Origin: Candidatus Taylorbacteria bacterium RIFCSPHIGHO2_12_FULL_45_16
Lineage (GTDB): Bacteria > Patescibacteriota > Minisyncoccia > Phycocordibacterales > PALSA-1337
DNA length: 64,000 bases
NCBI GenBank assembly: GCA_001821055.1
Contig: MHRT01000001.1
Span: 27,868-91,867, forward strand
Direction of reading: 5' to 3'
Below the pieces are notes generated by a model that was given only the letters and a program-made list of their open reading frames with translations, made no database searches and had not been told where the DNA came from. Below are positions 4,826-46,990 of the stretch, one piece after another; within the stretch, counting starts at the first letter, position 1, and each line of letters opens with the position of its first letter. The position numbers and the translations under genes are program-made.

Positions 4826-6151
4826 AACCAGATCCAGCGACCATAAAGACAGGTCGTTTTTGTTCATAAAGATAAGAAAACTATCTTTTTCGTCCAAACC
4901 GAGATTGAAAGCGTCAATCACACGGTCTGAGGTATCCACAATTGAAGAGACAAGATCAATTTCTCCGGTAATGGCGTTTATTCCCCAAATTTTGTCAACA
5001 AATGAAACTCTGCCAACGTACCAATCGTCCGGGTATGTGCCAGCAATGGGTTGTGAGGGTGCGGCGCAATAGACCATTTCTTTGTAGAAGTTGCCCCAGA
5101 CGCATTTGTCAGCCAAGGTGCGGACGATGGCATCAATCCCCTTCCCTTCGGAAATATTGAAAATACTGGAAATAATATTATTGGCATTGCCGGCCATTGA
5201 TAAAAATACACGCTTGGCGTCGGTGCTTACTTTTGTGCTTAATCCCGGTAGGGGACCAAGTATTTTTTTCCAAATGCCAGTTTTTGGGTCAATAAAATAT
5301 AGAAAACCACTCGAATCGGCGGCGCCTTTTGTAGTAATGGCAATCACATTTTCTGACGGCCACTCAACATTAACTTGGGTTATGGGCGTGGAAAATATTT
5401 TGACCACACTGGACCCGTCAAATTTGGCTGTATAGCCCGAGCCAGCACCGTTTTCGTTTATAAGAAAGAATATACGATCTCTCTTTGGTGAACTTGCGTA
5501 AGCGATAATATTTTCCGGTAAACTCTTGCCTTTTAGTTCGTATGGTGTGAGAGTGGCACCAGTTGTTTGGGAGACCGGTGATGTAGTGCTCGTGGCAATT
5601 TTTGGCACGATTCGGGCCTTTAGCTCAGCGTACACACCACCCGAGGTTCCACCTCGGTCAAAACCATCACCATCATCAAGTCCGAAGGCGATAAATCCAG
5701 TCAGATTCTTGTTCCAGGAGCTTTCGTACAATTTCGGCACGACCGTGTTTGATAACGTTACTATATCCAAGGTATTTCCACGCGCTTCATACACATTTCC
5801 TCTACCTCTATCAACCCAGCGGATAGCCGTTGTCGTGCTGGCTGGCTTGGCATTTACCGCCCCGGTAGTACTGGCGCCATATCCACCCGCCGGAGTATTG
5901 CTCAAAAGTCGTAGGGTAGGAATTTTGAGCTGTGTGCCAGGAGTTGCCGAGGTGGAACCTCGGTTATCACCCGGGACAGTTCCCTCTGTCCCCGTCACAA
6001 GACCTCCCCCAGGCCTATTGATTGGAACGAAGCCAGATTGAGGTGTCTCTGGTTCAAGTACAACATCAGTTCCTACACGCATGAAAAAATACCAGTAAGC
6101 CACGCCGGCTATAATGAGGAGGATGAAGAGTGTGAGGAGGAGTTTTTTCAT
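4811..6151 (-). CDS. Secreted or membrane-anchored hypothetical protein, first gene of the envelope cluster
   Basis: The product has an N-terminal TM/signal (MKKLLLTLFILLIIAGVAYWYF) and is Gly/Thr-rich. It contains two copies of the 17-nt palindrome, encoding NRGSTSA and DRGGTSG. Confidence 0.6.
   Translation of the reverse strand: MKKLLLTLFILLIIAGVAYWYFFMRVGTDVVLEPETPQSGFVPINRPGGGLVTGTEGTVPGDNRGSTSATPGTQLKIPTLRLLSNTPAGGYGASTTGAVNAKPASTTTAIRWVDRGRGNVYEARGNTLDIVTLSNTVVPKLYESSWNKNLTGFIAFGLDDGDGFDRGGTSGGVYAELKARIVPKIATSTTSPVSQTTGATLTPYELKGKSLPENIIAYASSPKRDRIFFLINENGAGSGYTAKFDGSSVVKIFSTPITQVNVEWPSENVIAITTKGAADSSGFLYFIDPKTGIWKKILGPLPGLSTKVSTDAKRVFLSMAGNANNIISSIFNISEGKGIDAIVRTLADKCVWGNFYKEMVYCAAPSQPIAGTYPDDWYVGRVSFVDKIWGINAITGEIDLVSSIVDTSDRVIDAFNLGLDEKDSFLIFMNKNDLSLWSLDLVSINN
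5641..5657. repeat. 17-nt palindromic repeat CCGAGGTTCCACCTCGG, copy 1
   Basis: Exact palindrome (7-bp stem, 3-nt centre), located inside the 4811..6151 CDS. Confidence 0.9.
5947..5963. repeat. 17-nt palindromic repeat CCGAGGTGGAACCTCGG, copy 2
   Basis: Exact copy in the opposite orientation to copy 1, in the same CDS about 290 nt away. Confidence 0.9.
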
Positions 6152-7446
6152 TTGTTATTTTCCCGGACTGAAAACTTTGCATTTATTAAATCTCGACTAT
6201 TTTTTAGTCTTTTTTGCAGATCTTTTTGTAACTCTGGGTCTTTGACATTACCCATCATTTGTTCTGCTGTACCAATATATTTGGCGAGCCTTGATTCAAG
6301 CTCTTTTTTTTCAAAAACCTCGCCGCTTCCCAAGAATACTGCGCTACTACCCACATAGGCAGTATTTTTTGAAAAAAGTCCAAATGTTGTATTTCCGACA
6401 ATTGTATCACTTCTATTTAGCTCAAGAACAGATTCGTAATAATTTGCCTGATCATTAATACCACCGTGATTATAAATTTCTTCCAATTGGTTTATTTTTG
6501 TTAGTTGACTATTTCCATCATCTCTTATTTTGTTTATTACTTCTTTTTGTTTATCAAACACCATATTTATTCCGGATAGATTTTTTGTAGTATCGTTATT
6601 TTCGAGATCAATAAAAGTTTGTTTTGATTGGGCCGCCAGAGACAATTTTGTTGCATTAACTACCAAGTTAGCTTTTTCCTTTGCAATTTCATAATCTTTA
6701 TTTTTTATTTCTGCAACTAATTCGTCAAATTCAGGGTCACCAATCTTATAATTATGTAATTGGGCCAGTAATGCATCTTGTTGTTTTTTTAAATCAGAGA
6801 CAATGGCCTGAGTTTGTTTTTGTTTTTCTGCTATACCTTGAATTTTAACCTGGTATTTTTCTAACTCAGCTGTAAGCTCATTAAAGAAACTACCAATATC
6901 TCCACTCTTACACCCAGGATCACCGATCGATATATCTGGATTATCTGCACATTGTATGATTATCGGCTCAACCAGATTTGTAGGTATAGCCACCAACCTC
7001 GGATCAATAGTCTTCAAAATTAGATATGAACACAAGACTAGTAACAAGCCGGAAATGGCATTTTGTAATTTTTTCAACCCGTCTTTTTTTCCAAGGAATG
7101 AATCAGAACTCATGTACTCAAATCCTCCCCAAACGATCATGAAGACCGCGGCCACGGCGGCCAAGGCAATCAATAAGTTGAACATATACTGGACATATCC
7201 TTGGAAATCAATTTCTCTGATTTGTGATTCAGAGCAAGTAACCGCGGGGATTTTGTTACCGTTTCCGTCTACGGTTTCTGGACTTTCTATACATGGCAAG
7301 GCTTCAAGAAGGGTGTATTTGTCAGGTGTTTGTGCTTGTGCCAGTGAGACATTTATCAAAAGAAATGACATGAATAGTGCGCACACGATAAAGACAAATA
7401 ACCCCCCTATTTTTTTTGTATGTGATGTAGAATTCATAAATAACAT
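6148..7446 (-). CDS. TrbC/VirB2-like pilin-domain protein with a C-terminal coiled-coil extension
   Basis: A signal peptide is followed by a Cys pair and then two hydrophobic helices (FNLLIALAAVAAVFMIVWGGF and ISGLLLVLCSYLIL), which is the conjugative-pilin topology. The C-terminal half is a long coiled coil. Confidence 0.45.
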   Translation of the reverse strand: MLFMNSTSHTKKIGGLFVFIVCALFMSFLLINVSLAQAQTPDKYTLLEALPCIESPETVDGNGNKIPAVTCSESQIREIDFQGYVQYMFNLLIALAAVAAVFMIVWGGFEYMSSDSFLGKKDGLKKLQNAISGLLLVLCSYLILKTIDPRLVAIPTNLVEPIIIQCADNPDISIGDPGCKSGDIGSFFNELTAELEKYQVKIQGIAEKQKQTQAIVSDLKKQQDALLAQLHNYKIGDPEFDELVAEIKNKDYEIAKEKANLVVNATKLSLAAQSKQTFIDLENNDTTKNLSGINMVFDKQKEVINKIRDDGNSQLTKINQLEEIYNHGGINDQANYYESVLELNRSDTIVGNTTFGLFSKNTAYVGSSAVFLGSGEVFEKKELESRLAKYIGTAEQMMGNVKDPELQKDLQKRLKNSRDLINAKFSVRENNK

Positions 7447-7452
7447 AAAAAA

Positions 7453-8544
7453 TTAGAACGTTGCAGTTTCATCTATTGAAGCTGTCTTGTTGGAAAATAT
7501 CGCAGAAAAACCAGCCGTTGAACCCTGGAGTATTTTATCAGTATTTTTGATGTTCAGCTGTATATTGGAGGATCCAGACGAACCTTCTGGCGCGCGCAAG
7601 ATGACTGATCTGTTTGATGATAATTCTGCCCGACTAAGATTGTTGATTGCCCATGCCCACGACAAATCATTATTACCAAGCGAATTGCCCACCCCACTGA
7701 AACCAAAAGGTACGGCCAACACGGTAACTTCTTTTTGTGTACCTATTCGGATTGATCCTTGTAGTGCGATATTAAACAACTTCCCGTACAACGGATCATC
7801 CACGTAAAAAGTTATGTATGGATTGCCGACGCTGACTTCGGAATACACTTGGGCGCTGGAACTATCATCGCGTGGCCAGATGGTCACGCTGATATCATAA
7901 GGCCGAGGCACAATGTCTCCTACTAGAGTGATGGATTGTTTGCCGTATCCACTCTGATTTTCTACGACACGGCTATTCTTTTTCCATTCATAAATAAGAG
8001 TTTTGGGGTCATATTCTACGCCAGAGACATTGGCTAGATGAGGAATGGCGATGATTTTGATCGAATTTTGATATACCGGGGCTACTTTACCTTTGAAAAA
8101 AGGCGGGACGTATCCATCGGTTTCCAATATAAGATCAATAGATCCGGAACCAAGTACCAGAGAGGACCCTACCATTCTGCCCTCCGGAGTGGTCGCCACG
8201 ACTTCCAAGGTTATTTTTTTGCCTATGGCAGGCGCGGTTATTTCAATAGTCGTGGCACCCACGGCATTTTGGGTGACTTTTCCGTTGACTGTCCAAGATA
8301 TTTTGGCGCTATTGATGTCAATGCTATAACTGCGGGCGGTAACTGTAATTTTCTGATTTGGGACTGGATTGTTGGTTGAGGCGGAGAGCTCCAGACCACT
8401 ACTGGATATGGGTATTTGGGCGAAGGCTGTTAGAGTAAACCCTCCTCCGCCAAGGCTACGGAGGGCAAGGAGACAAAAAGCAAAGATAAACAAAAAGCAA
8501 AGAAGATTAGAAAGTCTAAAAATCATAAAGAAACGAGATTTCAT
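7453..8544 (-). CDS. Secreted hypothetical protein (beta-rich)
   Basis: The product has a signal peptide and a Thr/Ser/Val-rich composition. It lies in the envelope cluster. Confidence 0.55.
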   Translation of the reverse strand: MKSRFFMIFRLSNLLCFLFIFAFCLLALRSLGGGGFTLTAFAQIPISSSGLELSASTNNPVPNQKITVTARSYSIDINSAKISWTVNGKVTQNAVGATTIEITAPAIGKKITLEVVATTPEGRMVGSSLVLGSGSIDLILETDGYVPPFFKGKVAPVYQNSIKIIAIPHLANVSGVEYDPKTLIYEWKKNSRVVENQSGYGKQSITLVGDIVPRPYDISVTIWPRDDSSSAQVYSEVSVGNPYITFYVDDPLYGKLFNIALQGSIRIGTQKEVTVLAVPFGFSGVGNSLGNNDLSWAWAINNLSRAELSSNRSVILRAPEGSSGSSNIQLNIKNTDKILQGSTAGFSAIFSNKTASIDETATF

Positions 8545-8608
8545 TAACTTTATTTTACCATGATAAAATTCTCGCGTCTCTTGGCTGATTCGGGGATAAA
8601 GAAATAGA

Positions 8609-9085
8609 TTAACGTGTCAAACCGCCACTTGACGCGCGTATACCGTCCTTGTTTATCCTAGAATTACCTATTTGTGTCTGAGATGAAGTTGATTGGCGTA
8701 TGCCATCTCTGTAAAGTGGTTGTCGAATTGTGTTACCCAACATCATTTCTCGTTCTTGTCTTGCTTGTTCGGCGGCCTCTTCTTTCTTTACATCACTATG
8801 AATATACCAGACATCAACAACCCAAAAAGGTGCTATTCCGCCGGTGATCGCATCGCCAAGAGCCAGTCCAAGCAGTGAAGCAATCCTTTTTGGTTTTGTA
8901 ATAATTGGAATCTTAAACAAAGAAAAAAGCCCGATCAAGGCAGGTCCGGTAACAACTTCCATGGCCTCACTTATAGCAATACCTATTCCAGTTAAATCAA
9001 TGAGAATTTGCACAATGTCAACTATTATTGCAAATCCATACAAAACAACCCAACGCATACTACTCTTTTTTTTAGTCTGCTCCAT
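8609..9085 (-). CDS. Small membrane protein
   Basis: The product has two to three hydrophobic helices. It lies in the envelope cluster. Confidence 0.5.
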   Translation of the reverse strand: MEQTKKKSSMRWVVLYGFAIIVDIVQILIDLTGIGIAISEAMEVVTGPALIGLFSLFKIPIITKPKRIASLLGLALGDAITGGIAPFWVVDVWYIHSDVKKEEAAEQARQEREMMLGNTIRQPLYRDGIRQSTSSQTQIGNSRINKDGIRASSGGLTR

Positions 9086-9103
9086 GGATATATTATAACT
9101 AAA

Positions 9104-10948
9104 CTACCCTGCCGCTTCTAACTGTTTCTTTGCATCTTGAATAGCCAGCACTTGAGCAGGGTTTGTCGTGATAATCTGATCCTCGGTATACGATCCGTGT
9201 ATCTTGATGGCCACGTGCTTCAATCCCACGAAGAATATTCCCTCTCCCACGTCAGACTCCAACAAGAGATATTTTTCCTCATCCGTCAGGTTAAATGTTT
9301 TTTGGATATGATCGATCACGCTTGGGGATTGTTTCAAAAGGATTTGTATTGAAGAGTTTGTCACTATCGGCAGGCCATAAGGCGAGTTCAAAAAGTCGTC
9401 AACATCTTGGGTGATTGTGGCCAAGCCGAGGAAATATTTGCGACCGCGCTTTGCCAAACCGAAGAGGAACGAAGCCGTGTCTTCTGATTTCATCATCCAC
9501 CACGCCTCATCTATGACCAACAAACGCTTCTTGAGGTTCTTGCGGATGGCATTCCAGATATAGTGAGTGACTATATACATGGCCACCGGTTTGAGCTCGT
9601 CTTCCATGTCGCGGAGTGAAAAAACCACGAATTTTTTATTTATATCCACATTTGAAGGACGATTGATGAAACCAGCCCAGGTTCCTTTGGTGTATTTACT
9701 CAAGCGCTGAACCAGTGAATCCCCCCCCTCCATTCCGGCCAGAACCAGTTCAAAATCGGACAGAAGTGGCGGTTCAACAGTCCGGAAATCCGATTCGGGA
9801 GTGATATCTTTCAAAGCGTAGGTTTCACTGATGGCCCGATCAACGATGGCATCTTCTTCTTGGGTAAGACCACCCAACATAATTCGGAAAAGACCGACCA
9901 AGTTGATGATATTTGATCGAAGGACGTCAGCAGCTGATTCGTCTTCACGGGCGATCGGCAAGTCAAATGGATTTATATGGTGTTCGGAATTGAGTGAGAT
10001 ATTGAAATATTTCCCTCCCGTGGCTTCGGCCATATACTCGTATTCTTTTTCTGGATCGATAACGATTACATCAGTGTCAAACATCAGCGTGCGCAGAATT
10101 TCCAGCTTGGTGGCATAAGATTTTCCGGCGCCGGCAGTGGCAAAAGTGACCGAATTGTAGTTTTCCAACGAAAATCTATCAAAAAGTACCAGGGACGAAT
10201 TGTGACGATTTATGCCGTACAAGATTCCTTTATCTGAAGTAAGGTCAAATGAGACGAATGGGAAAAGTGATGAAAGGGGCGAAGAGTTGAGCTTGGAATG
10301 CACCCCGAGCTGATCATCGGCGATGGGGATGACGGATTTGAAGCCTTGTTCTTGCTGAAACAGCGCGGGTTTAACGTAAATAAGTTTTGATTCAAGGATT
10401 GATTTGATTTCAGATTCCAACTTATCAAGCTCACCTTCCGAGTCGGCAAACAAAGTGATATAAACACCGACATCAAAAAGGTGTTCCTGCGCCTGCATCA
10501 GTTGATCACGGAGCTGTTCCAGATCTTGATAAGCCGTATCCAATGCCGGATCACGGACCAGCCCCTTGTCTTCCCTGCGAGAAATCTGGCTTTGGACTTC
10601 GGCGACTTTCTTTTGGAAATGGCGGAGGATTTTTGCCGTTTCGACGGGATGTATGAATATTGAAATATTAAAAATCTTGTCTAGATTGATGATAGGGGCA
10701 AACCAGCTTTCGTCAAGGAAGCGTGGATATGAGATTACAAAGAGAGTTCGGCCTATTTTTTCTCCCAAATTGAGATCCTTTGGGCTAATTTTTAGAGCTG
10801 ACGGAGAAATAACATCTTTCAATTCCAAAACGCCGGCTTGATAGATCTCTTCAGGTAAAATAGAAACAATCGGTGATTGCTCATCTTTTCGTCCAAATAA
10901 TTTGTTTAAGAATGACATGTTGATTTTGTGTTGGTTCTGCGTATTCAT
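9104..10948 (-). CDS. VirB4/TrbE/TraC-like conjugation ATPase, C-terminal ATPase part (split gene)
   Basis: The product has a Walker A TAGAGKSY and a Walker B LLVIDEAWWMM. I placed the start at the ATG at 10946-10948 (MNTQ...). The track start, a GTG at 10984, falls inside a hairpin. Confidence 0.8.
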   Translation of the reverse strand: MNTQNQHKINMSFLNKLFGRKDEQSPIVSILPEEIYQAGVLELKDVISPSALKISPKDLNLGEKIGRTLFVISYPRFLDESWFAPIINLDKIFNISIFIHPVETAKILRHFQKKVAEVQSQISRREDKGLVRDPALDTAYQDLEQLRDQLMQAQEHLFDVGVYITLFADSEGELDKLESEIKSILESKLIYVKPALFQQEQGFKSVIPIADDQLGVHSKLNSSPLSSLFPFVSFDLTSDKGILYGINRHNSSLVLFDRFSLENYNSVTFATAGAGKSYATKLEILRTLMFDTDVIVIDPEKEYEYMAEATGGKYFNISLNSEHHINPFDLPIAREDESAADVLRSNIINLVGLFRIMLGGLTQEEDAIVDRAISETYALKDITPESDFRTVEPPLLSDFELVLAGMEGGDSLVQRLSKYTKGTWAGFINRPSNVDINKKFVVFSLRDMEDELKPVAMYIVTHYIWNAIRKNLKKRLLVIDEAWWMMKSEDTASFLFGLAKRGRKYFLGLATITQDVDDFLNSPYGLPIVTNSSIQILLKQSPSVIDHIQKTFNLTDEEKYLLLESDVGEGIFFVGLKHVAIKIHGSYTEDQIITTNPAQVLAIQDAKKQLEAAG

Positions 10949-10954
10949 GTTGTC

Positions 10955-11026
10955 ATTCCGGCGAAGGCCGGAATCCAGAATCACAAACTAAGTGTTAGTA
11001 ATTCTGGACCCCTGCCTTCGCAGGGG
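10955..11026. repeat. 72-nt element of three consecutive hairpins at the VirB4 split site
   Basis: The three hairpins are ATTCCGGC-GAAG-GCCGGAAT, CCAGAAT-N19-ATTCTGG and CCCCTGC-CTTC-GCAGGGG. The element contains the in-frame TGA at 11033-35 and a TAG. Confidence 0.7.
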
Positions 11027-11032
11027 TGACAA

Positions 11033-11671
11033 TCAGGTGATCTGTATCGGTTTCTCCGTTTCTCCTGGATTGAAGAGTTTGTAGAACAATTCTACCACTT
11101 CTTCGGTACCAAGTTCCGCCGCTCGAACCCCACAACGCACCAAACCTTGCTCTACAACAGCCACCCTTTGCTCGAGTTGGCTTCTGTACTCTTGGAATTG
11201 CGTGTCGGCCGTAGCAGTTTTGTCTGTGGCGCTCTTTTTGCCTCCAAACATGCTAGAAAGTGGATTTTTACCGCCGATGATTGGCGGATCGTATGGTATA
11301 ACCACAAAGAAACTTTTGGACATGATGTTGGTGCTTTCGACGAATGTTTTGATGAATTCTATGTATTCGCGAACCTGTATTTTCATGAGCTCGGTGGTTT
11401 GTTCTTTGTACCTATCCTCAAGAAGGGCGATATATGGTCTGATATCAAGTTTTTTTGATTGGACGAAGATTTGTATGGAAAAATCAAGCGAGTTCACGAA
11501 ATTCTGGAATTGCATCAAAATGGAACTTTGTTCATCTTGGGATTTGAGGGCGAAGTTGAGGGAAGATGCCAAAATGATGGCACGCATGCCTCCGTTTTTC
11601 AAAATGATTACGCCGTCGCGGATTTCTTGAATAGGAATGAAGTCTTGAGTTGTTGATTGTTTTGGAGCCAT
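11033..11671 (-). CDS. VirB4-like N-terminal domain (split gene, N-terminal part)
   Basis: The N-terminus DFIPIQEIRDGVIILKNGGMRAIILASSLNFALKSQDEQ follows the VirB4 N-domain pattern. This ORF is in the same frame as the downstream ATPase ORF, separated from it by two stop codons. Confidence 0.65.
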   Translation of the reverse strand: MAPKQSTTQDFIPIQEIRDGVIILKNGGMRAIILASSLNFALKSQDEQSSILMQFQNFVNSLDFSIQIFVQSKKLDIRPYIALLEDRYKEQTTELMKIQVREYIEFIKTFVESTNIMSKSFFVVIPYDPPIIGGKNPLSSMFGGKKSATDKTATADTQFQEYRSQLEQRVAVVEQGLVRCGVRAAELGTEEVVELFYKLFNPGETEKPIQIT

Positions 11672-13110: not shown

Positions 13111-13155
13111 GTTGTTTTTGATGCGTCTTTATCTTCCTTTGGTTTATCCTCAGCA

Positions 13156-15021: not shown

Positions 15022-15029
15022 GTGATTTG

Positions 15030-24026: not shown

Positions 24027-24135
24027 ACAATATCAGAGAGCGATAAAGAAACGCTGAAGAAGCGATAAAGTTTTGCTGGAGTTGTCTTTTCAGGTCCAAT
24101 TTACACGAATATTTTCAAGCGTGATGGTAAATAAA

Positions 24136-26020: not shown

Positions 26021-28225
26021 CTAGTACCTCTTCTTGAAGTCCTTTCTATGTCCGTGATCACCCATTGGCTTGGGCATTTCTTCCTTCTTGGTGAAGAAAT
26101 CAGGATTTGCGGACTTGATTGAAAGATTTAAACGACCCTTGTCATCAACTTCTTTGACCATAACAGGGACTTTGTCGCCTTCTTTGAGGTAAGTTTCTAC
26201 GCGTTCAACTCGGAATGGTGCGATTTCGGAGACATGGACTAGGCCTTCGGCATTCGGACCGATCTTCACAAAAGCGCCAAAGTCCATGAGGCGCACAACC
26301 TCCCCGTCGTATTTTTCTCCTGGCATGTATTCGCGTGTCATATTGAAGATAATTTCTCTGGCTTTAGCGGCGGTCTCGTTTTTACCGGTAATGAATATTG
26401 AACCGTCATCTTCAATGGTGATGTCATCCACATGAGTCACATCGCGAATTTCGTTTATAGTCTTGCCACCGGTACCGATGACTAGGCCGATTTGTTCGGG
26501 TTTGATCTTCATTACGAAGATTTCCGGAGCATTTGGTGAAATCTTTTCGCGCGGAGCTGGAATTTCTTTTTCTATGACATCCAAAATCTTGAAACGGGCG
26601 ACTTTCGCTTTTTCAAATGCCTCAACCAGTATTCCGAGTGGAATCCCTCCAACTTTTACATCCATCTGAACCGCTGTAATACCTTGTCGTGTCCCGGCAA
26701 CCTTGAAGTCCATGTCGCCATGATGGTCTTCAGGTCCTTGTATATCGGTCAAAACTTTATAATCGTAATTTTCAACTGCCCCCTTCCTTGCTTCCTTGCT
26801 TCCTTGCTTCCTTGCTTTTTCTTTCATCATCAAGCCAGAGGCAATCCCAGCCACCGGCGCTTTGATCGGAACGCCACCGTCCATGAGCGCCAGTGTTGAA
26901 CCGCAAACCGAACCCATGGAGGTGGAGCCGTTTGAAGCCATGGCTTCAGAAACGAGGCGGATTGTATATGGGAATTTGTCTTTGTCAGGGATGACCGCGG
27001 TCAACGCTTTTTCCGCCAGAGCGCCGTGGCCGATCATTCGGCGGTTGGTACTGCCGACGCGGCCGGTTTCACCGGTTGAGAATGGTGGGAAATTGTAATG
27101 GTGCATAAAACGCTTTTTTTCTTGGACAATCAGACCATCAATTACTTGCGCGTCGCCAGGACTGCCGAGCGTGAGAGCGGAAAGAATATGCGTGCCGCCG
27201 CGATAAAATATGCCTGATCCATGGAGAATAGGCGAAATTCCCCCAGCCTTGGCGAATAGCGGACGAACTTCATCCATACCGCGTCCATCCGCGCGTTTGT
27301 CGTTCCTGATCGCCTCGTCATGAAGCAAATCATTGACCGCTTCCTCAAATATTTCTTGTGCCATGCCGATATTTCCCTCTGGCATTTTCTCTGTGAACAA
27401 TTTGGTCCACACACCTTTGATTTCGTCAATTCTTTCATGGCCAGGTTGGTTGCCTATGACATACTGCTTTAGCCGAGGTTCCACCTCGGTATCAAAGAGT
27501 TCCTGCGTTCCAGGAGTCGGCTCAGGCAATGTCACCATCACCTTAGGTTTACCGATTTCAGAAATAATTTTATCCTGCCAGACCTGGACCTTCTCGATTT
27601 CTGTTGACGCGCGAGTCAGAGCTTCATTCATAATCGTCTCATCAACTTCTTTGCTAGCCACTTCTATCATATTTATCATGTTATCTTTGCCGCAGGCTAC
27701 CATTTCCATGACGACACCCGCCTCTTCGCGAGCTTTGAAGTCCGGATTGATTAGCCAATCTCCGTTTTTGCCGACGCGCACTGCGGAAACAGGTCCATTC
27801 CACGGGATATCAGAGACGCCCAAAGCAAGCGAAGCGGCGATGACGGAAACCACGTCGGGGTCGTCTTGGTCTATTGAAAGTGTTGTTATAATAACCTGCA
27901 CCTCATTGCGGATTTTTTGGTTGAATAATGGGCGAATAGTACGATCGACGATCCTTCCAGATAGAATTGCTTCTGTTGATGGCCGGCCCTCTCTGCGGAT
28001 GAATCGCGAACCGAGGATTTTACCGGTGGCGTAAAACCTTTCTTCATAATCAACGGTCAATGGGAAGAAGTCTCCATCTTTCAAATCGCCCATCACGGCA
28101 GTGGCTAGGACGGTGGTATTACCATAGCGAAGCATGACCGAGCCGTTGGCCTGATCTGCAAGGTCGTTGAACTCTGCGGTCAATGTCTTGCCGCCGACTT
28201 CAAGCGAGTATTCTTTTTTGTTCAT
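26021..28225 (-). CDS. pnp: Polynucleotide phosphorylase
   Basis: The 734-aa product has two RNase PH domains, a KH domain and a C-terminal S1 domain. It contains an in-frame (CCTTGCTT)x3 repeat and one copy of the 17-nt palindrome. Confidence 0.95.
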   Translation of the reverse strand: MNKKEYSLEVGGKTLTAEFNDLADQANGSVMLRYGNTTVLATAVMGDLKDGDFFPLTVDYEERFYATGKILGSRFIRREGRPSTEAILSGRIVDRTIRPLFNQKIRNEVQVIITTLSIDQDDPDVVSVIAASLALGVSDIPWNGPVSAVRVGKNGDWLINPDFKAREEAGVVMEMVACGKDNMINMIEVASKEVDETIMNEALTRASTEIEKVQVWQDKIISEIGKPKVMVTLPEPTPGTQELFDTEVEPRLKQYVIGNQPGHERIDEIKGVWTKLFTEKMPEGNIGMAQEIFEEAVNDLLHDEAIRNDKRADGRGMDEVRPLFAKAGGISPILHGSGIFYRGGTHILSALTLGSPGDAQVIDGLIVQEKKRFMHHYNFPPFSTGETGRVGSTNRRMIGHGALAEKALTAVIPDKDKFPYTIRLVSEAMASNGSTSMGSVCGSTLALMDGGVPIKAPVAGIASGLMMKEKARKQGSKEARKGAVENYDYKVLTDIQGPEDHHGDMDFKVAGTRQGITAVQMDVKVGGIPLGILVEAFEKAKVARFKILDVIEKEIPAPREKISPNAPEIFVMKIKPEQIGLVIGTGGKTINEIRDVTHVDDITIEDDGSIFITGKNETAAKAREIIFNMTREYMPGEKYDGEVVRLMDFGAFVKIGPNAEGLVHVSEIAPFRVERVETYLKEGDKVPVMVKEVDDKGRLNLSIKSANPDFFTKKEEMPKPMGDHGHRKDFKKRY
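26789..26815. repeat. Tandem 8-mer (CCTTGCTT) x3 inside pnp
   Basis: Three exact 8-nt units (24 nt) preserve the frame. They encode KEKARKQGSKEARKG, a likely insertion relative to other PNPases. Confidence 0.7.
27473..27489. repeat. 17-nt palindromic repeat, copy 3 (inside pnp)
   Basis: Exact CCGAGGTTCCACCTCGG. It encodes TEVEPR in the pnp frame. Confidence 0.9.
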
Positions 28226-28234: not shown

Positions 28235-28251
28235 CCAAGGTTCGACCTCGG
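28235..28251. repeat. Degenerate copy of the 17-nt palindrome in the pnp 5' leader
   Basis: CCAAGGTTCGACCTCGG differs from the consensus at two positions. It lies 10 nt upstream of the pnp start codon. Confidence 0.5.
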
Positions 28252-28273
28252 AATTCGCCCCAAGATTTCAGCT

Positions 28274-28939
28274 TTGAATGAATCGCGCAACAGCGAGTGC
28301 CTTGCGGCGTTTCAAATCTGCCTATCCGGGGGCGAGTTAACTTGTAAAGTGCTGGGTGGACAGCGGAGGTACTGTAGCATGGTTTTTTGGGTTTTTCCAC
28401 TGGTTGCTTATATATTAATATTCAGGTATAAATCAAACAAATCTGAATTTTTTACAATGAATGCTGAAATTATCATCCCAACAGTTATTTTAAGTGCTGA
28501 CCGGTCGATGGTCTATAGACCGCCAATACGGATTCCAGAATGGGCTGTCGCTTGGGTATTTCCAGAGCTTCAACAAGTTGCTAGGCCAAAACTTGATCTT
28601 GGAAGGGTCACTTGTTTTTCTGAGTATTTTGTTGAAAAGGAAATTGTTCCCGGCTTTGAATTTTTCGAGCATCTCAAAAAGATGTCACTAATCAGTCGGT
28701 GCCTCAATTTTCCTGACGGCGTGTCAATTGCGGCTTATGAGTATTGTTGGTATGAGTTCAAAGCTAAAAGAGTTTTTCTCTGGCAATCGGTTGTTCACGA
28801 TGGCCACCAGAATCTCTTTGTGCCGTGGGTTCAGAATATTCGAGGTCAGATGCCGATTATCTACTGGCATTTGCTCGAACGTTTTTTCAGTCCTGGCTAC
28901 AACATCAATGTGAAAAATAGTTTGGGCCTTCTGGTTTGA
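28274..28939 (+). CDS. Hypothetical protein
   Basis: This 221-aa ORF has no recognisable motif. The true start may be an internal Met near 28457. Confidence 0.4.
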   Translation: MNESRNSECLAAFQICLSGGELTCKVLGGQRRYCSMVFWVFPLVAYILIFRYKSNKSEFFTMNAEIIIPTVILSADRSMVYRPPIRIPEWAVAWVFPELQQVARPKLDLGRVTCFSEYFVEKEIVPGFEFFEHLKKMSLISRCLNFPDGVSIAAYEYCWYEFKAKRVFLWQSVVHDGHQNLFVPWVQNIRGQMPIIYWHLLERFFSPGYNINVKNSLGLLV

Positions 28940-38990: not shown

Positions 38991-38995
38991 GTATT

Positions 38996-39793: not shown

Positions 39794-39850
39794 TCATAGA
39801 CCATAATATAACATACCTGTCGGACAGTCAACCAATTAAAACCAAATATT

Positions 39851-40516: not shown

Positions 40517-40667
40517 AGTGCTGTTCCAAAGGTTTTTCTCAACCAGTTGCTGACTTCACGTCAGCAACTGGCTTTTCTTTTACCACAATGCCATTTTTTA
40601 GCCTTACTTCTAGGCGTGTATTGCTGTTGACTCTGTATTTCACATATGATACACTTTTGTCATAATT

Positions 40668-41279
40668 ATGAAAAACAAGAATAACCTTATCGAACAGCTA
40701 AAACCCTTACCCCATTTTACTAAAGATGTTGTGTACCAGCTTGGCAAGCATCTAGGGCTTGAGGATTCTACGGTTGACACCTACATTAGCCGCTTCTTGA
40801 AGCGCAAAGAAATTTATCGTCTAAAAAATGGGCTCTATGTTTCATCTGATTTTTTCGATAAGAATAAGAATGATATTTCTTATTCATTTTACCTTGCCAA
40901 TATTCTTCGCAGGCCATCATACGTTAGTTCGTGGACGGCGCTCCAGTATTACAATCTTACTACTGAAGCAATCTACGGAGTCACTTCGGTGACGCAGAAA
41001 GTTAAAAGAGACTACCAGACAAAGGCCGGCAGTTTTGTTTATCAGTCGATCGATAAAAAGTTTTTTTCTAATTTTTCTCTAGTAAACGGGAAATTTAAAT
41101 TTTTCATCGCCTCGCCCTCAAAAGCATTGTTTGATTTGCTATACTTTAAGACCAATGAGTTCCGTGGTGTTTCGATCGGAAACGTTGAGGATATGATAAA
41201 AGAGTTGAGGATAGATTTTGAAGAGATGGAAGAGGAAGAGCAGACGAAATTTTATTCAATGGTCAACAAACTAAAATGA
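40668..41279 (+). CDS. AbiEi-like antitoxin/transcriptional regulator
   Basis: The 203-aa product has an AbiEi_4-like N-terminal domain. Its stop overlaps the start of the downstream AbiEii-like gene (ATGA). Confidence 0.6.
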   Translation: MKNKNNLIEQLKPLPHFTKDVVYQLGKHLGLEDSTVDTYISRFLKRKEIYRLKNGLYVSSDFFDKNKNDISYSFYLANILRRPSYVSSWTALQYYNLTTEAIYGVTSVTQKVKRDYQTKAGSFVYQSIDKKFFSNFSLVNGKFKFFIASPSKALFDLLYFKTNEFRGVSIGNVEDMIKELRIDFEEMEEEEQTKFYSMVNKLK

Positions 41280-42553
41280 GTGAACAGATTAAAACAATTC
41301 TAAAAAGAAAACTTGATGATCTTGCCTCTTATGGTGAGATTGATGTAGAAACACGTCGTAACGCGCTTAAAGAGGATTTGCAGTTCTACGTCCTCAATTT
41401 TATTTATCATCATCCTGAATACAATAAATGGATTATGTATGGAGGCTCCGCACTCCGTATCATTCATGGTCTTGATCGAATGTCGGTTGATCTAGACTTT
41501 GAAATTTCACATTCTATAACGGAGAAATTCTTGGAAGAGGTGAAGAAAGAGATTGAAGACTATTTCAAAAACACTTATGGCGCAGGAACGGATTTCCTTA
41601 CAATTAAAATAACCACGGGCAGGGGATTACTTCTCAAATTCCATGTCGGTGATGAGTTAAGCTCTGGGCACCCGTCGAAACAGGTTCATGTAAAGATAGA
41701 CCTCAATCACTTTGTGGCACCGAAGACTGTGACGGAACGTAGACCAATAAACCAGGACCAGCTTTCTTTTGTAATTCTGACCTATAACATGTCAGCCCTC
41801 ATGGCTAGCAAACTGGCTGCTATTTTCCTCCGAGGAACTCGCGGTATCGGCTCTGCTACATATGAAGAAAAAGGGCGTGATATATATGATCTTCTTTGGT
41901 ACATGAACAAAAAGATTGTGCCTGATCTGGGCTATCTCGTAGCTAAGGAGATTGATGTAAAAGACCCACGCATGATCTTCGATAGGCTTACGCTTCAGAT
42001 GAACAAAGTTAGTGATGATAATCTTAAGCAGGACCTATCACCTCTGTTTGTAAATCGAGGCTTTATTGAAAGATGGCTCAAAAATTGGCGTGAGAGTTAC
42101 TTGCGACTTCTTGATGACTACAAAATTCGGACTGTAGTGGGTTTAGAAAGGATTGTAATTCATCAGGATGAGCCAAGTACAACCGCCATCACTTTTGAAT
42201 ATTTCTACAAAACTAAAGATGATAAGTTGTTTAGGGTTATGTACAAAATTGAAGACTATTTGGTTGCATTTAGTGATGATGTTTTACCCGTTGAACCTGA
42301 TAGAAACATTGAAGAGAAGATAGGGTTTGTCACCAGTATTATAGGCGGTAAGCGAGATAGGTTAAATCGGTTTGCAACTCTGTTTTATCAGAAAACTGAA
42401 AAGTATTTCAAGAAAACAAACAAAATCGTGCTTGGCGATAATCTTGTTACTAAAGTAATCCGAATGACCGCCGACGGTTTAAATCAGAAAGAACAGATTC
42501 TCCTCAATAAGTCCACCCTATTATCCTGTGAACTCGATGACTTGTTGAAATAG
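41276..42553 (+). CDS. AbiEii/AbiGii-family nucleotidyltransferase toxin (DUF1814) with a C-terminal extension
   Basis: The product carries the NTase motif YGGSALRIIHGLDRMSVDLDFEI. At 425 aa it is about 120 aa longer than a typical AbiEii. Confidence 0.65.
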   Translation: MSEQIKTILKRKLDDLASYGEIDVETRRNALKEDLQFYVLNFIYHHPEYNKWIMYGGSALRIIHGLDRMSVDLDFEISHSITEKFLEEVKKEIEDYFKNTYGAGTDFLTIKITTGRGLLLKFHVGDELSSGHPSKQVHVKIDLNHFVAPKTVTERRPINQDQLSFVILTYNMSALMASKLAAIFLRGTRGIGSATYEEKGRDIYDLLWYMNKKIVPDLGYLVAKEIDVKDPRMIFDRLTLQMNKVSDDNLKQDLSPLFVNRGFIERWLKNWRESYLRLLDDYKIRTVVGLERIVIHQDEPSTTAITFEYFYKTKDDKLFRVMYKIEDYLVAFSDDVLPVEPDRNIEEKIGFVTSIIGGKRDRLNRFATLFYQKTEKYFKKTNKIVLGDNLVTKVIRMTADGLNQKEQILLNKSTLLSCELDDLLK

Positions 42554-42558
42554 CAAAA

Positions 42559-42583
42559 AACCGCCCTTAAGGCGGTCTTTGCG
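42559..42583. terminator. Bidirectional terminator hairpin between abiEii and hup
   Basis: The sequence AAAAAACCGCCC-TTAA-GGCGGTCTTTG reads as a hairpin with a T-run on the minus strand. Confidence 0.6.
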
Positions 42584-42612
42584 TTTCGGTGAGAAACCGA
42601 AGAGAAATAGAG

Positions 42613-42885
42613 CTATTTTACGGCGTCCTTGAGTGCCTTTGCGGCGCGGAACTTTGGAACCTTCATGGCTGGAACCTTGATGGCTTCGCCAGTGCGAGGG
42701 TTGCGAGCGTCGCGAGCTGCGCGTTGTTTGACTGAGAAGATACCGAGGCCGGCGATAGAGACCTCTTCGCCCTTCTTGAGAGAGTCAACGATGCTATTGA
42801 TAGCTGTCTCAACTGCTTGCTCGGCCTGAACCTTGGTTCCTCCGAGAACTCCGTGAACTGCATCTACAATTCCTGCTTTATTCAT
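42613..42885 (-). CDS. hup: DNA-binding protein HU
   Basis: The 90-aa product carries the HU pattern MNKAGIVDAV...GLGIFSVKQRAARDARNPRTGEAIKVPAMKVPKFRAAKALKDAV. Confidence 0.95.
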   Translation of the reverse strand: MNKAGIVDAVHGVLGGTKVQAEQAVETAINSIVDSLKKGEEVSIAGLGIFSVKQRAARDARNPRTGEAIKVPAMKVPKFRAAKALKDAVK

Positions 42886-43061
42886 TGTTGTATATATTAA
42901 TTAATAATCGCTTGTAAGTGGTCTCGGCCCGCCGCTGCCTCGATGGGCGGAGCGGATCGAGTCTATAACCATGGCCCTAATTATATAGTAAGCCGTATTT
43001 TGAGCAATAGGGTGGGAAAAGTTGACAAGATGTTGATAAATATTGCTCTGTACTTACCTGG

Positions 43062-44591
43062 TTATCTCGCAAACTCTATCGTCCTCGTCTCCCGTATAAC
43101 ATTCACCTTGATCTCGCCAGGATACTTGAGATCCTTTTCAATCTTCATGGCAATCTCTCTTGCCATATTTTTGGCAGTTAGATCATCAACTTCCTCGGGC
43201 TTCACGAATATGCGTATCTCGCGTCCGGCTTGGAGAGCGTAGGACTTCTCGATGCCAGGGAATGAGTTGGCCAGAGCCTCAAGGTCGCCGAGACGCTTGA
43301 TGTAGTTTTCAATATTATCGCGTCTGGCACCGGGACGAGCACCGGAAATGGCGTCCGCGGTCTGGACGATGCGAGATTCAATGGTCTCGTAAGGGTATTC
43401 TTCATGATGAGCTTGCATGGCCTTGATGACTTCTTCTGGAGCGCCAAATTTTTGCAAGATGCGGCGACCAATCTCGACATGAGTGCCGGCGACTTCGTGG
43501 TCAAGAGCTTTGCCTATATCGTGAAGGAGAGCACCAGCCTTGGCGACTTGAACATTGGCACCGAGCTCTTCGGCAATCATCCCGGCTATATGAGCCATTT
43601 CCATGGAATGTTGGAGAACATTCTGGCCATAGCTGGTGCGGAAATGGAGGCGACCGAGAATGAGTAGAATGCGTGGATCCAATCCGAGCACGCCACATTC
43701 ATACGCGGCGGCCTCACCTTTTTCTTTGATGGTTTTGTTTATATCCTGTTTTGCCTTTTCAACCAAAGATTCTATCTTTACCGGCTGGATGCGGCCGTCT
43801 TTGATGAGTTCACGCAAAGCGATGGCGGCAGTATGACGGCGCACTGGATCAAATGAAGAAATGGTGATGGCGCCTGGAGTATCGTCAACCATGACTTCAA
43901 CGCCGGTGACGCGTTCAAAAGCTTTGATATTGCGACCTTCCTTGCCGATAATTTTCCCCTTGACATCATCGCTTGGAATTTCAACCATAGTGGACATGAT
44001 ATCCTGCGTAACGGATGACGCCAGGCGCTGAATAGAAATGGCGAGAATATCTTGCGCTTTCTTATTGAGCATGTCTTCGCCTTGAGTGTCGAGTTTATTC
44101 ATACGAACGAGCAAATCTTCTTCGCTGCGCTTTTCCACGATCTTCATGAGTTGGTCTTTGGCATCGTTGGCAGAGAGCTGAGCGATTTTTTCAAGTGCGG
44201 CTAGGCGATCAAGCTCGAGTTTGTCGGCTTTCTCGCGGATAGTCTTGATTTCAGCTACGCGGATCTTGATCATCTCGACTTCTTTGTCGATGTCAGTTTG
44301 GCGCTTGTCGAGTAGGTCCTCTTTTTTGATGAGGCGATCCTCGATTTGATGTATTTTTTCTTCTTTCTCTTTAATCTCTACTCGCGCGTCGTTGAGGGTT
44401 TTGGTGGCTTTGACTTCAGCGTCCGCGGTAATCTTCTTGGCCTCTTCTTTGGCGGCAAGAAGCATTTCCTTGATTTCAAGCTCCATGGATCCCTTTTTGC
44501 CAAGAGAGATGATCAGTCGCAGATAGTAACCAACAGCCACTCCGACGACTCCGGCGACGGATAGAAAGAGGGCAACTAATTTTAATGACAT
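43062..44591 (-). CDS. rny: Ribonuclease Y
   Basis: The product has an N-terminal TM, a coiled coil, a KH domain and an HD domain (LLHDIGKALDHE). It is 509 aa. Confidence 0.9.
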   Translation of the reverse strand: MSLKLVALFLSVAGVVGVAVGYYLRLIISLGKKGSMELEIKEMLLAAKEEAKKITADAEVKATKTLNDARVEIKEKEEKIHQIEDRLIKKEDLLDKRQTDIDKEVEMIKIRVAEIKTIREKADKLELDRLAALEKIAQLSANDAKDQLMKIVEKRSEEDLLVRMNKLDTQGEDMLNKKAQDILAISIQRLASSVTQDIMSTMVEIPSDDVKGKIIGKEGRNIKAFERVTGVEVMVDDTPGAITISSFDPVRRHTAAIALRELIKDGRIQPVKIESLVEKAKQDINKTIKEKGEAAAYECGVLGLDPRILLILGRLHFRTSYGQNVLQHSMEMAHIAGMIAEELGANVQVAKAGALLHDIGKALDHEVAGTHVEIGRRILQKFGAPEEVIKAMQAHHEEYPYETIESRIVQTADAISGARPGARRDNIENYIKRLGDLEALANSFPGIEKSYALQAGREIRIFVKPEEVDDLTAKNMAREIAMKIEKDLKYPGEIKVNVIRETRTIEFAR

Positions 44592-44863
44592 ATGCGGTGT
44601 GGATCCGCCTTTGACGAGAACTATGGTGAGATTAACGTATGAGCTTGTGCCCGAAAGTTTGCGGGGTATGATGTTGTAACTCGATTCAATAGGGTGTTCA
44701 TAAGTTGTTTTTTCACTAGAATTCCTTAAAAAGCGGTGTTAATTTAAAAATTGGTAACGATTGTATGATATAACTTATTTGGACGGAGCGCAAGTTGACT
44801 TGTCATTTTGCTTTTACTAGATATAAAAAAGGCACCATATCGTGAGATATGACACCAGTGATT

Positions 44864-45493
44864 TCAAAGTCGCTTGCCGATCATGAATATTGAACCAATC
44901 AAAAGAAAAAGGATGATTGCACTTGGCTCCGGTACGACTTGGATAAGGTAGAGTTGATCTGTCCGGAATCTCTCCGTATTTACCAAGATAAAGTCCTGAA
45001 TAGTCCCTCCTGGTGCATCTGCTATCTCAAGCGGGTTAAGAGCATCGAGGCCCCAAGAGTAGAGTCCAGTTTGTGGAGCGGCAAAATTGGGTAATATGAA
45101 TTGAAAGTTTCGACTTTCTCCTTCTGGTACCGAATACCAATCCGATGTATCGCTCGGATATGACACTGGTGAAATTAGATAGCCTTCAGCCGGAGATGTT
45201 ACATGGTAATTACCATTCAGGAGTATGGTGGTGTGGCTATATAAGCCGTCGAAAATGTTGTAGTCTTTTCGAACAAATACGTCCATGTCCGTAGCCGTCA
45301 GGCTTATTATTATCGAGAAGCTTCCGTACTTACTGGGATTATTAACCGTTCCAGTGTAATCTGCTCGTAGATTGACCAGATCGAGCTCGAACGCCTGCGT
45401 CAGATTTGAGGCAGTGAGAAAGAGAACGAGGGTAATGCCGACCAGACCAACAGCGAAACTGCCAACCGAATGTCGAATTGCAATGTTCTTCAT
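44864..45493 (-). CDS. PEP-CTERM sorting-domain secreted protein
   Basis: The product has an N-terminal signal. Its C-terminus VPEPSAIILFLLIGSIFMIGKRL (PEP, TM helix, basic tail) is the PEP-CTERM signature. Confidence 0.65.
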   Translation of the reverse strand: MKNIAIRHSVGSFAVGLVGITLVLFLTASNLTQAFELDLVNLRADYTGTVNNPSKYGSFSIIISLTATDMDVFVRKDYNIFDGLYSHTTILLNGNYHVTSPAEGYLISPVSYPSDTSDWYSVPEGESRNFQFILPNFAAPQTGLYSWGLDALNPLEIADAPGGTIQDFILVNTERFRTDQLYLIQVVPEPSAIILFLLIGSIFMIGKRL

Positions 45494-45629
45494 AGTTTAT
45501 TTTCTCCCTTTGTTTTTTGGGAGACCTTTTTGTTTCTGTAAATCATCCTACAGAAGATTTTATATTTGTCAAGATTATGCTTTCATGCTATAGTGCTTGA
45601 GCAATTATTTTCAATAAAAATATAAAACC

Positions 45630-46211
45630 ATGTTAATCCCAACCGTTATCGAAAAATCATCGTTTGGCGAACGCGCGTATGACATCTACTCACGCCTCCT
45701 CAAAGAAAATATTATTTTCCTGGGCGGTCCCATCGACGACCACATGGCCAACCTGATCATTGCCCAGCTGCTTTTCCTGCAATCCGAAGATCCAAAGAAG
45801 GAAGTTCAGCTCTACATAAACTCGCCTGGCGGTTCAGTGACCTCAACTTTAGCCATTATTGATACGATGAATCATGTCAAGAATGATATCTCCACTGTTT
45901 GTGTGGGTATCGCCGCTTCTGGTGCGGCCCTGATTCTTTCGGCTGGGACAAAAGGCAAGCGCGTAGCTCTGCCTAACGCCGAAGTTATGATTCATCAGCC
46001 GCTTGGTGGCGCCGAAGGACAGGCTTCGGATATAGAGATCAGCGCCAAGCACATCATCAAGACCCGCGCGACCATCAACAAAATTCTCGCCAAGAATACT
46101 GGCCAGTCACTGTCGAAGATTGATAAAGATGTTGATCGGGATTTCTTCATGGATGCCGAAGAAGCCAAGAAATATGGAATTATTGATCAGGTGGTCAATG
46201 GGAAGAAGTAA
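45630..46211 (+). CDS. clpP: ATP-dependent Clp protease proteolytic subunit
   Basis: The product carries a Ser-His-Asp triad context (GIAASGAAL and MIHQPLGG). It is 193 aa. Confidence 0.95.
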
Positions 46212-46271
46212 TTAATGATTAAAACCCAATGATGCAATGATCAGATTCGGGCCGATTGGCCGCATTGATAA

Positions 46272-46990
46272 TTGGAAACTTATAACATGCGTCTCTACCG
46301 CTTCTACATAAGCGAAATTATTGGCTCACGGAAAGAGATTATTATTCATTCAGATGAATTGGCGAATCAGATTTTGCACGTGTTTCGAATGAAAGTGGGG
46401 GAGAGCGTCATTCTGTTTGATGGTTCTGGTTTTGATTATGAATGTGTCATTGCCAGCTTCGGTCAAACTGACCAAAAATTAGTCACTTTCAATGTCGGGA
46501 GAAAAACGCTAAGCAGATTCATGCCTGCGTGTGAGGTTACTTTATGCGCGGCGGTGGTAAAAAAAATACTTTTGAATGGATTGTGGAAAAAGCCACGGAA
46601 CTTGGCGTGACGAAAATAATCCCGATCATGGCCGAGCGTAGCGAGAAAAAGAATTTAAATGAAGAACGATTGAAGAAAATTGCGGTGGAGGCTAGTGAGC
46701 AGTCAGGACGGGGGACTGTGCCGGAGATTGAGGTAATCATCAGTCTGGAAGAAGCTGTTCAGCGGCTTCCCCGAGGTTCCACCTCGGTGGCATTCCATAC
46801 CGAAGGTAAGCCATTACCCCTGCCTATCCGAGGTGGAACCTCGGTACTCTTCATCGGTCCGGAGGGCGGCTGGTCGCCGAAAGAAATCGAGATGTTTCAC
46901 GCCAATAAAATTCCCATATTTACATTCGGAAAACAAGTTTTGCGGTCTGAGACTGCCGTAGTCGTTACCCTTGCGAAGATATTACTGTAA
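46272..46990 (+). CDS. rsmE: 16S rRNA (uracil1498-N3)-methyltransferase RsmE, split by a -1 frameshift at an A8 tract
   Basis: ORF1 (46272-46610, PUA-like N-domain) and ORF2 (46544-46990, SPOUT domain with ATELGV and GPEGG) are in frames 0 and -1. The joined product aligns to the full RsmE pattern across the A8 tract at 46559-46566. Confidence 0.8.
46771..46787. repeat. 17-nt palindromic repeat, copy 4 (inside rsmE)
   Basis: Exact CCGAGGTTCCACCTCGG. It encodes PRGSTS. Confidence 0.9.
46828..46844. repeat. 17-nt palindromic repeat, copy 5 (inside rsmE, inverse orientation)
   Basis: Exact CCGAGGTGGAACCTCGG, 40 nt downstream of copy 4. It encodes IRGGTS. Confidence 0.9.

Follow-up and report, generated by a model that had tools for sequence, protein, structure and literature searches.

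Which process places the same short palindrome, base for base, inside several unrelated genes of one bacterial genome? The question is raised by a stretch of DNA from Candidatus Taylorbacteria bacterium RIFCSPHIGHO2_12_FULL_45_16 (hereafter the window, meaning the whole 64 kb that was analysed), in which a 17-nt palindrome lies in the gene for polynucleotide phosphorylase (pnp), in rsmE, which encodes a 16S rRNA methyltransferase, and in the gene for a 446-amino-acid (aa) protein specific to the Candidate Phyla Radiation (CPR). An earlier note, made from the sequence alone, had likened the repeat to the highly iterated palindrome HIP1 and to Rickettsia palindromic elements (RPEs). That identification overlooked a transposase: in a related genome, the identical 17-mer flanks a Y1 transposase gene of the type associated with repetitive extragenic palindromes (REPs). 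We consider it probable, at roughly 0.7, that the 17-mer is a REP-type hairpin, formed in single-stranded DNA (ssDNA) or RNA, and that it is the cognate repeat of a Y1/HUH family, widespread in Parcubacteria, that resembles the tyrosine transposases linked to REPs (RAYTs).

A 17-nucleotide hairpin iterated within genes

An exact search of the window for CCGAGGTNNNACCTCGG returned five matches, at the coordinates that the earlier note had given, and the pattern CCGAGGT(TCC/GGA)ACCTCGG was matched in 0 of 100 dinucleotide-preserving shuffles of the same sequence. Once an 8-nt tandem repeat within pnp is set aside, no 13-mer other than the palindrome recurs three or more times in the window. Relaxing the search to two mismatches added a single site, at 28235-28251, which is two positions off the full 17-mer, and the two further sites found at three mismatches are at the level expected by chance (1.24 expected). 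The encoded peptides are those first described, RG(S/G)TS in four copies and TEVEPR in pnp. That four of the five copies share one reading frame is not in itself significant (p about 0.14, by our own calculation), and the 17-mer contains no stop codon in any of its six frames.

Because the flanks of the copies are unrelated to one another, the repeat unit is indeed about 17 nt long; neither a target-site duplication nor a shared target-site motif is present. Folded as ssDNA, a single copy has a stem of 7 bp closed by a loop of 3 nt (-6.4 kcal/mol). In rsmE the pair is inverted, with 40 nt between the copies, and their proposed ability to pair is borne out by folding, in which they form one DNA stem of -26.7 kcal/mol (z = -6.7). 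A longer mobile element, such as a miniature inverted-repeat transposable element or an RPE, was rejected since the flanks of the five copies share nothing and target-site duplications are missing, and a CRISPR or tandem array was rejected on account of the irregular spacing and mixed orientations. An apparent regularity, by which a T follows every copy on the + strand, fails at a sixth exact copy found outside the window. A search for tRNAs and known RNA families returned only four tRNAs, none of them near the copies.

A transposase gene bracketed by the same hairpin

Among the metagenome matches listed is a Zambryskibacteria contig (L155) with three exact 17-mers within 800 bp; the same locus is found in L054, which comes from a Zambryskibacteria species representative. 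The three copies are arranged around and within an open reading frame (ORF) of 232 aa at 2037-2735: one lies just upstream, at 1986, one lies 6 nt past the stop codon, at 2741, and the third lies inside the ORF, at 2219, where it is read SRGSTSG. Hairpins that bracket a transposase gene are the signature by which REP/RAYT systems are defined in the literature (PMC5581495). The product of this ORF scores 29.5 bits against Pfam Y1_Tnp (cut-off 23), and its best NCBIfam model is the REP-associated tyrosine transposase, at 43 bits and thus below the cut-off of 80. An HxH motif (H93, H95) and Tyr153, within an AYIHLNP motif, are invariant in 40 homologues. The AlphaFold model of the protein, with a confidence (pLDDT) of 85.8, finds as its best fold match in the PDB the E. 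coli RAYT bound to a REP hairpin (4ER8, E = 1.7e-6), with the TnpA proteins of IS608 and ISDra2 ranking after it. A sequence-profile search of the PDB with the RAYT alignment gave no match, and this result, together with the NCBIfam score below cut-off, places the protein on a divergent branch of the RAYTs. The ORF is therefore a predicted RAYT-type Y1/HUH transposase gene. Its family is large, with 7,621 homologues at E<=1e-5, many of them labelled Parcubacteria; the cluster to which the protein itself belongs consists of members labelled Zambryskibacteria, with no Taylorbacteria copy among them.

It is informative to examine the DNA around other members of this family. In six further lineages (L174, L194, L180, L177, L169 and L193), each transposase homologue is flanked by a palindrome of its own; a seventh, L192, was compared as well. 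The L174 hairpin, TACAAGGTtccACCTTGTA, occurs exactly upstream of, inside (L174:10159) and downstream of the gene; the L194 hairpin, TACAAGGTccgACCTTGTA, is exact as well, with the same loop in the flanks and in the internal copy (L194:4158); and in L180 the flanking hairpins and the internal copy (L180:10160) match exactly as CAAGGGttaCCCTTG. In L177 the flanks are CATAGGTtccACCTATG and two near-exact copies (ATAGGTTCCACCTCT) lie inside the gene, one of them at L177:5449, L192 has only imperfect hairpins of this kind, and the genes of L169 and L193 are flanked by other palindromes, with no internal copy detected. Hence in L155, L174, L194 and L180 the internal hairpin equals the flanking one in both the stem and the loop triplet, and in these four it lies in frame about 160-190 nt from the start of the gene. 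It encodes a recurrent [LIV]QGxTLY or QGLPLD motif (SRGSTSG in L155), within a segment that the structural model renders as a low-confidence, disordered loop (residues 56-69). This agreement between internal and flanking hairpins in four lineages suggests a role in self-regulation or as a master copy. On the contigs examined, the transposase gene is a single hairpin-flanked copy between housekeeping genes, without an adjacent tnpB.

A separate motif of about 50 nt also adjoins elements of this kind. It lies at 24031-24085 of the window, upstream of a Mg-chelatase/ComM-like gene, and contains an internal direct repeat (GCGATAAAGaaaCGCTGAAG / AAGCGATAAAGttttGCTGGAG). It is kept at the orthologous spot in L182/L183, has no Rfam match, and is 91% identical to sequence immediately beside hairpins or a RAYT in L169 (8870-8924) and L135 (7638-7681).

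Host genes and the manner of gain

The copies in the window and the genes that hold them are collected in Table 1. All five coding copies sit in variable protein loops, and comparison with relatives indicates that they were gained in more than one way.

Table 1. Copies of the palindrome in the window, with their host genes
Feature	Position	Strand or loop	Context
Host gene 1: 446-aa CPR-specific protein	4811-6151	-	N-terminal transmembrane helix, no Pfam match
Copy 1, exact	5641-5657	TCC loop on + strand	in 446-aa gene, read D-RGGTS-G (DRGGTSG)
Copy 2, exact	5947-5963	GGA loop on + strand	in 446-aa gene, read N-RGSTS-A (NRGSTSA)
Host gene 2: polynucleotide phosphorylase (pnp)	26021-28225	-	ATG at 28225
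Copy 3, exact	27473-27489	TCC	in pnp, read TEVEPR
Diverged hairpin	28235-28251	-	pnp 5' leader; CCAAGGTTCGACCTCGG, mRNA strand CCGAGGTCGAACCTTGG
Host gene 3: rsmE, 16S rRNA U1498 methyltransferase	46287-46990	+	split by -1 frameshift
Copy 4, exact	46771-46787	TCC	in rsmE, read P-RGSTS-V (PRGSTSV)
Copy 5, exact	46828-46844	GGA	in rsmE, read I-RGGTS-V (IRGGTSV)

In pnp, the TEVEPR of copy 3 aligns without a gap to (A/K/T)EIAPK in 120 PNPase orthologues of 75-87% identity. The relatives have no palindrome at this site, and the copy overwrites six ancestral codons while leaving the length of the gene unchanged. At the level of DNA, 9/17 and 7/17 of its bases match L182 and L184, compared with a gene-wide identity of 74-76%. 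The leader, otherwise conserved, carries a +20-nt insertion when set against L182, and the diverged copy falls within it; in L184 another hairpin occupies the same insertion point. The two mismatches first counted for this copy were confirmed; its distance from the pnp ATG is 9 nt, where 10 had been noted. On the mRNA strand its mismatched arm position pairs as G.U, and a 12-mer of this hairpin, GAGGTCGAACCT, is the hairpin that flanks the transposase homologue of L169.

The remainder of the pnp leader (28252-28335, minus strand, ...ggataggcagatttgaa.cgccgcaaggca...gcgcgattcattcaaagctgaaatcttggggcgaa) is also conserved in L182 and, in part, in L184, and may be a structured regulatory leader; hairpin insertions gather at its 3' end. 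The tandem repeat mentioned above, a perfect 8-nt unit (CTTCCTTG x 4.4) at 26783-26817, encodes an expanded loop rich in K/E/A/R, which exceeds that of most close orthologues by about 11 residues.

In rsmE, copy 4 occupies a variable linker ahead of the AFHT strand and copy 5 is of the same length as the corresponding segment in orthologues of the LSAGSTAL type, the two together forming an inverted doublet with a 40-nt spacer that resembles a REPIN (a hairpin-forming REP doublet). The nearest rsmE relative recovered, L185 (78% DNA identity), has two perfect 17-mers at nearly the same sites, both with loops flipped relative to the window and with indels surrounding the copies. By our calculation, two 17-mers would remain unchanged at 22% divergence about once in 10^4-10^5 trials, and the copies are therefore either constrained or actively kept identical. 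In the rsmE of L044, site 2 holds a diverged palindrome, TTATCGAGGtcaggCCTCGATAA, that carries the compensatory changes C1>T / G17>A. Insertion of the doublet as one REPIN unit was rejected, because the spacer is ancestral coding sequence for the conserved AFHT strand.

The rsmE gene is also interrupted: a run of eight A residues (A8, 46559-46566) shifts its reading frame by -1, and nine A residues would restore ...AAVVKKNTFEW.... Public annotation of the same organism has only a 135-aa C-terminal fragment of RsmE (P0277), and so the frameshift is present in the deposited assemblies. It may reflect a genuine pseudogene or mark a site of slippage.

In the 446-aa gene, copy 1 sits in an insertion of 5 aa that none of the aligned homologues has (LDDGDGFDRGGTSGGVYAEL vs LDDADS-----PISTLYAEL), and copy 2 falls in a low-complexity N-terminal stretch of variable length. 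The family of this protein comprises about 2,800 representatives at 50% clustering. Its gene cluster (window 4811-11000, L173:1-7000) contains PrgI-like, TraC-like and TraG/VirB4-like P-loop genes together with one whose product weakly matches a type IV secretion pilin, and resembles conserved CPR surface-apparatus loci.

Distribution beyond the window

Contigs of the same organism add 9.3 kb to the left and 8.3 kb to the right of the window (17.6 kb, for 81.6 kb in all). A sixth exact copy lies in an intergenic position at L173:19938-19954, 9 kb beyond the start of the window, and the 8.3-kb right extension has no exact 17-mer. The statement that exact copies are never found between genes and always lie in coding sequence was thus an artefact of the window. 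Of the 6 exact copies in 81.6 kb, or about 1 per 14 kb, 5 lie in the coding sequence of well-supported genes, a split close to that of random placement if the genome is about 90% coding, as we assume. Exact matches of its proteins place the window among Candidatus Taylorbacteria bins from groundwater. The palindrome-bearing proteins are identical across independent assemblies (NCBI, ENA, JGI, Logan), on 23 contigs in the case of the 446-aa protein and on 10 in that of PNPase, and hence the copies are not an assembly artefact. Among strain variants there were no pre-insertion alleles: all members of the 90% clusters keep the peptides encoded by the palindrome.

A scan of species representatives, with one genome for each of 185,579 species and the window's own genome not in the collection, found 64 stretches with the 17-mer, compared with about 70 expected by chance according to our estimate, and never more than two stretches in one genome. 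In the syntenic relative L044, whose DNA is about 75% identical, a single exact copy is found elsewhere, at L044:7145, in a terminator-like intergenic position between convergent genes and with an extended stem. Because L044 has one copy and no scanned genome more than two, the high copy number is specific to the lineage of the window. Viral contigs gave three single matches, which are uninformative. Inverted pairs of repeats recur: they are found in rsmE, in L185, in L135 (with a 2-nt spacer), in L174 and in L144.

The L135 pair is intergenic on a 180-kb contig and consists of two exact 17-mers in opposite orientation at L135:7600-7635 (taCCGAGGTGGAACCTCGGtaCCGAGGTTCCACCTCGGta). A longer conserved unit, aatccacccCCGAGGTTCCACCTCGGggtaaatggagcttcggcag, contains the 17-mer in another CPR-like lineage (L148:670 and L148:2959; also L136, L142, L172 and L132), and the two copies of this unit in L148 stand on either side of an ORF for an integrase-like (DDE) transposase of 350 aa.

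Origin of the copies and alternative explanations

Gain of the copies was lineage-specific: small insertions account for some of them, and at least one overwrote coding sequence without altering its length. Under the explanation that we favour, a RAYT encoded elsewhere in the genome, or formerly present, would recognise the hairpin on ssDNA, cleave it and rejoin it, and this activity would both seed new copies and keep existing ones identical. Selection would then leave only in-frame events in tolerant surface loops, preferentially those giving the Gly/Ser/Thr-rich RG(S/G)TS. Survival inside genes would follow from the scarcity of intergenic space and from the lack of a stop codon in all six frames. 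The asymmetric loop may flip (TCC<->GGA) by recombination or by template switching between the arms, and a length-neutral overwrite might result from an enzyme-mediated exchange of hairpins or from conversion guided by partial similarity, both of which we put forward as hypotheses only.

Several observations weigh against this explanation. No RAYT homologue was found in the window and the 17.6 kb of adjoining sequence, either by tblastn or by hmmsearch with the family profile (E<=10), the latter covering all six-frame ORFs of the window, L173, L186, L185, L044 and others; the link to the Taylorbacteria genome therefore rests on the identity of its repeat with that of another Parcubacteria lineage. 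The Zambryskibacteria representative that bears the RAYT has only two stretches with the repeat, so that high copy number and a RAYT are observed in different genomes. No GTAG or CGTC tetranucleotide stands at the foot of the hairpin beside any copy. Furthermore, copy 3 of pnp and site 2 of rsmE show no change in length, which simple HUH-type insertion does not predict and which resembles substitution or conversion, and all but one of the six exact copies fall within coding sequence, whereas REPs are by definition mostly extragenic.

One alternative is a motif like HIP1 or an uptake signal, which accumulates by point substitution under molecular drive (DNA uptake that is biased and coupled to recombination, or a bias of methylation or repair) independently of any transposase, the RAYT flanks being merely further motif sites. 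The pnp copy and rsmE site 2 do replace sequence that already matched in part (9/17; E and P conserved; I>V, K>R), and the copies occupy poorly constrained protein segments with one reading frame favoured. A like placement, in loosely constrained segments and a favoured frame, has been reported for uptake sequences in proteomes. The window also holds genes of the type IV pilus/T2SS-like kind, and CPR bacteria are thought to scavenge DNA. Nonetheless, we consider this explanation improbable: at about 1 per 14 kb the repeat is far sparser than HIP1 and uptake sequences, which occur at about 1 per kb, variants with one or two mismatches are almost absent, two of the copies (in the 446-aa gene and in the pnp leader) are true insertions, and the hairpins upstream of, inside and downstream of Y1 genes, with matching stems and loops, are left unexplained. 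Nothing observed points to a restriction or methylation site: the annotated parts of the window showed neither a methyltransferase nor a restriction gene, roughly 12-51 kb of the window lying outside the systematic annotation.

It is also worth weighing whether each copy is a structural element selected locally and kept for a function of its own, as a terminator or attenuator, a hairpin for RNase processing or mRNA stabilisation, or a site for a dimeric protein. Some intergenic copies invite this idea, in that they are terminator-like (L044:7145, with its extended stem between convergent genes, is an example) and that several metagenomic copies have stems extended by 6-12 bp and followed by T-runs, or come after tRNA or tmRNA genes. 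The palindromy of rsmE site 2 in L044, kept by compensatory change, and the G.U pair that the arm mismatch of the pnp leader forms on the mRNA strand point the same way. However, five base-identical copies in unrelated genes and both orientations would not be expected of separate local functions, the coding copy in pnp is absent from all relatives at 75-87% identity, the positions in rsmE shift between species, and a 7-bp stem (-6.4 kcal/mol as DNA) is weak as a standalone terminator, with no T-run inside the genes. We thus hold local selection alone to be quite improbable as the origin of the repeat, with the proviso that termination, processing and stability are known secondary uses of REPs, for which reason this alternative does not really exclude the REP-type hairpin. 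Chance, ordinary conserved coding sequence or an assembly artefact can practically be set aside. Peptides like RG(S/G)TS and TSV-AFHT do occur sporadically in RsmE orthologues, but none of the 100 shuffles matches, orthologues encode other residues and the proteins are identical in independent assemblies. The shuffles and the 120 differing PNPase orthologues uphold the view of the earlier note that the repeat is iterated, in frame and lineage-specific, and that it is neither a product of chance nor ordinary conserved coding sequence.

Returning to the REP-type hairpin with its cognate RAYT-like family, one can imagine a more far-reaching form of this explanation, which we regard as unlikely at present. 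In Parcubacteria, a domesticated RAYT would maintain minimal 17-nt hairpins that spread both by insertion and by length-neutral templated overwriting, in essential genes, of sequence already similar in part, and the in-frame hairpin of the transposase gene would change together with the dispersed copies. If this were true, it would amount to an enzyme-linked, HIP1-like mode of conversion that continually rewrites protein loops in streamlined genomes.

Implications

To our knowledge, REP/RAYT systems have been studied almost entirely in Proteobacteria and as extragenic elements. The homologues described here form a large and divergent RAYT-like family in the CPR, many of its members coming from Parcubacteria. 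The genomes of these bacteria have almost no intergenic space, for which reason the hairpins would be housed within pnp, rsmE and other genes, whose surface loops they recode. The overwrite in pnp, and the rsmE copies that remain perfect from species to species while their loops flip, may be signs that copies are homogenised or converted and not simply inserted; such non-insertional spread, if true, would be relevant to the long-standing problem of the propagation of HIP1-like palindromes. The repeats are also a source of lineage-specific variation in protein loops and of possible mis-annotation in CPR genome bins.

Comparison with known systems

In the literature searched, no paper was found that links RAYTs or REPINs to Patescibacteria, or Taylorbacteria to palindromes. 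Known REP/REPIN-RAYT systems reportedly include the E. coli REPs with TnpA_REP (4ER8) and the Pseudomonas REPINs, and are said to have been described by Nunvar in 2010, Bertels and Rainey in 2011 and Ton-Hoang in 2012. The resemblance to these systems lies in a short GC-rich hairpin that brackets a single Y1/HUH gene, in a repeat that matches the transposase lineage, in a lineage-specific expansion with near-identical copies, and in a fold closest to 4ER8. Inverted pairs like REPIN doublets occur as well, but the one in rsmE, with its spacer of ancestral coding sequence, was not inserted as a unit. The differences are that the Parcubacteria unit is only 17 nt long and has no GTAG/CGTC tag, that the host belongs to the CPR, that most of the Taylorbacteria copies are intragenic, that the Parcubacteria transposase is longer (about 220-230 aa) and scores below the NCBIfam cut-off for RAYTs, and that in four lineages its gene contains an in-frame internal hairpin that agrees exactly or nearly so with those in the flanks.

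Palindromes within genes have precedents, among them the RPEs, which Ogata and colleagues reportedly described in 2000. Intragenic GTAG/CGTC REPs and the short RPE-4/6 of Rickettsia have been described as insertions that interrupt ORFs, and intragenic palindromes, as single or dimeric units that add a few to tens of residues, are tolerated in frame in known proteins that include enzymes acting on nucleic acids (Di Nocera et al. 2013, PMC3733652). The 17-mer is likewise tolerated in frame within genes for known proteins, but it encodes only 5-6 residues, and its copy in pnp replaces codons without adding length. RPEs, at about 100-150 bp, are far longer than this unit, which also has no conserved flanks, and the likeness to RPEs that the earlier note had seen was therefore not sustained. 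The comparison with HIP1 holds in part. HIP1 (GCGATCGC) is an 8-mer without a hairpin loop that occurs about once per kb, and we know of no dedicated transposase for it. What the two have in common is an exact palindrome, often in coding sequence, that apparently arises by length-neutral replacement, as in the pnp event, which alone is HIP1-like; unlike HIP1, the repeat is a 17-nt hairpin, is sparse at about 1 per 14 kb, is linked to a Y1 transposase and is represented by insertions at some of its sites.

The IS200/IS605 elements, with the TnpA enzymes of IS608 and ISDra2, belong to the same enzyme superfamily, and IS605-type subterminal hairpins are likewise recognised on ssDNA. In contrast to these elements, the gene described here occurs on the contigs examined as a single hairpin-flanked copy, with no tnpB beside it and with its hairpins dispersed on their own. 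Set beside all of these systems, the 17-mer is notable in that most of its copies lie within genes, that at least one of them overwrote coding sequence with no change in length, and that the associated transposase gene has a hairpin of its own.

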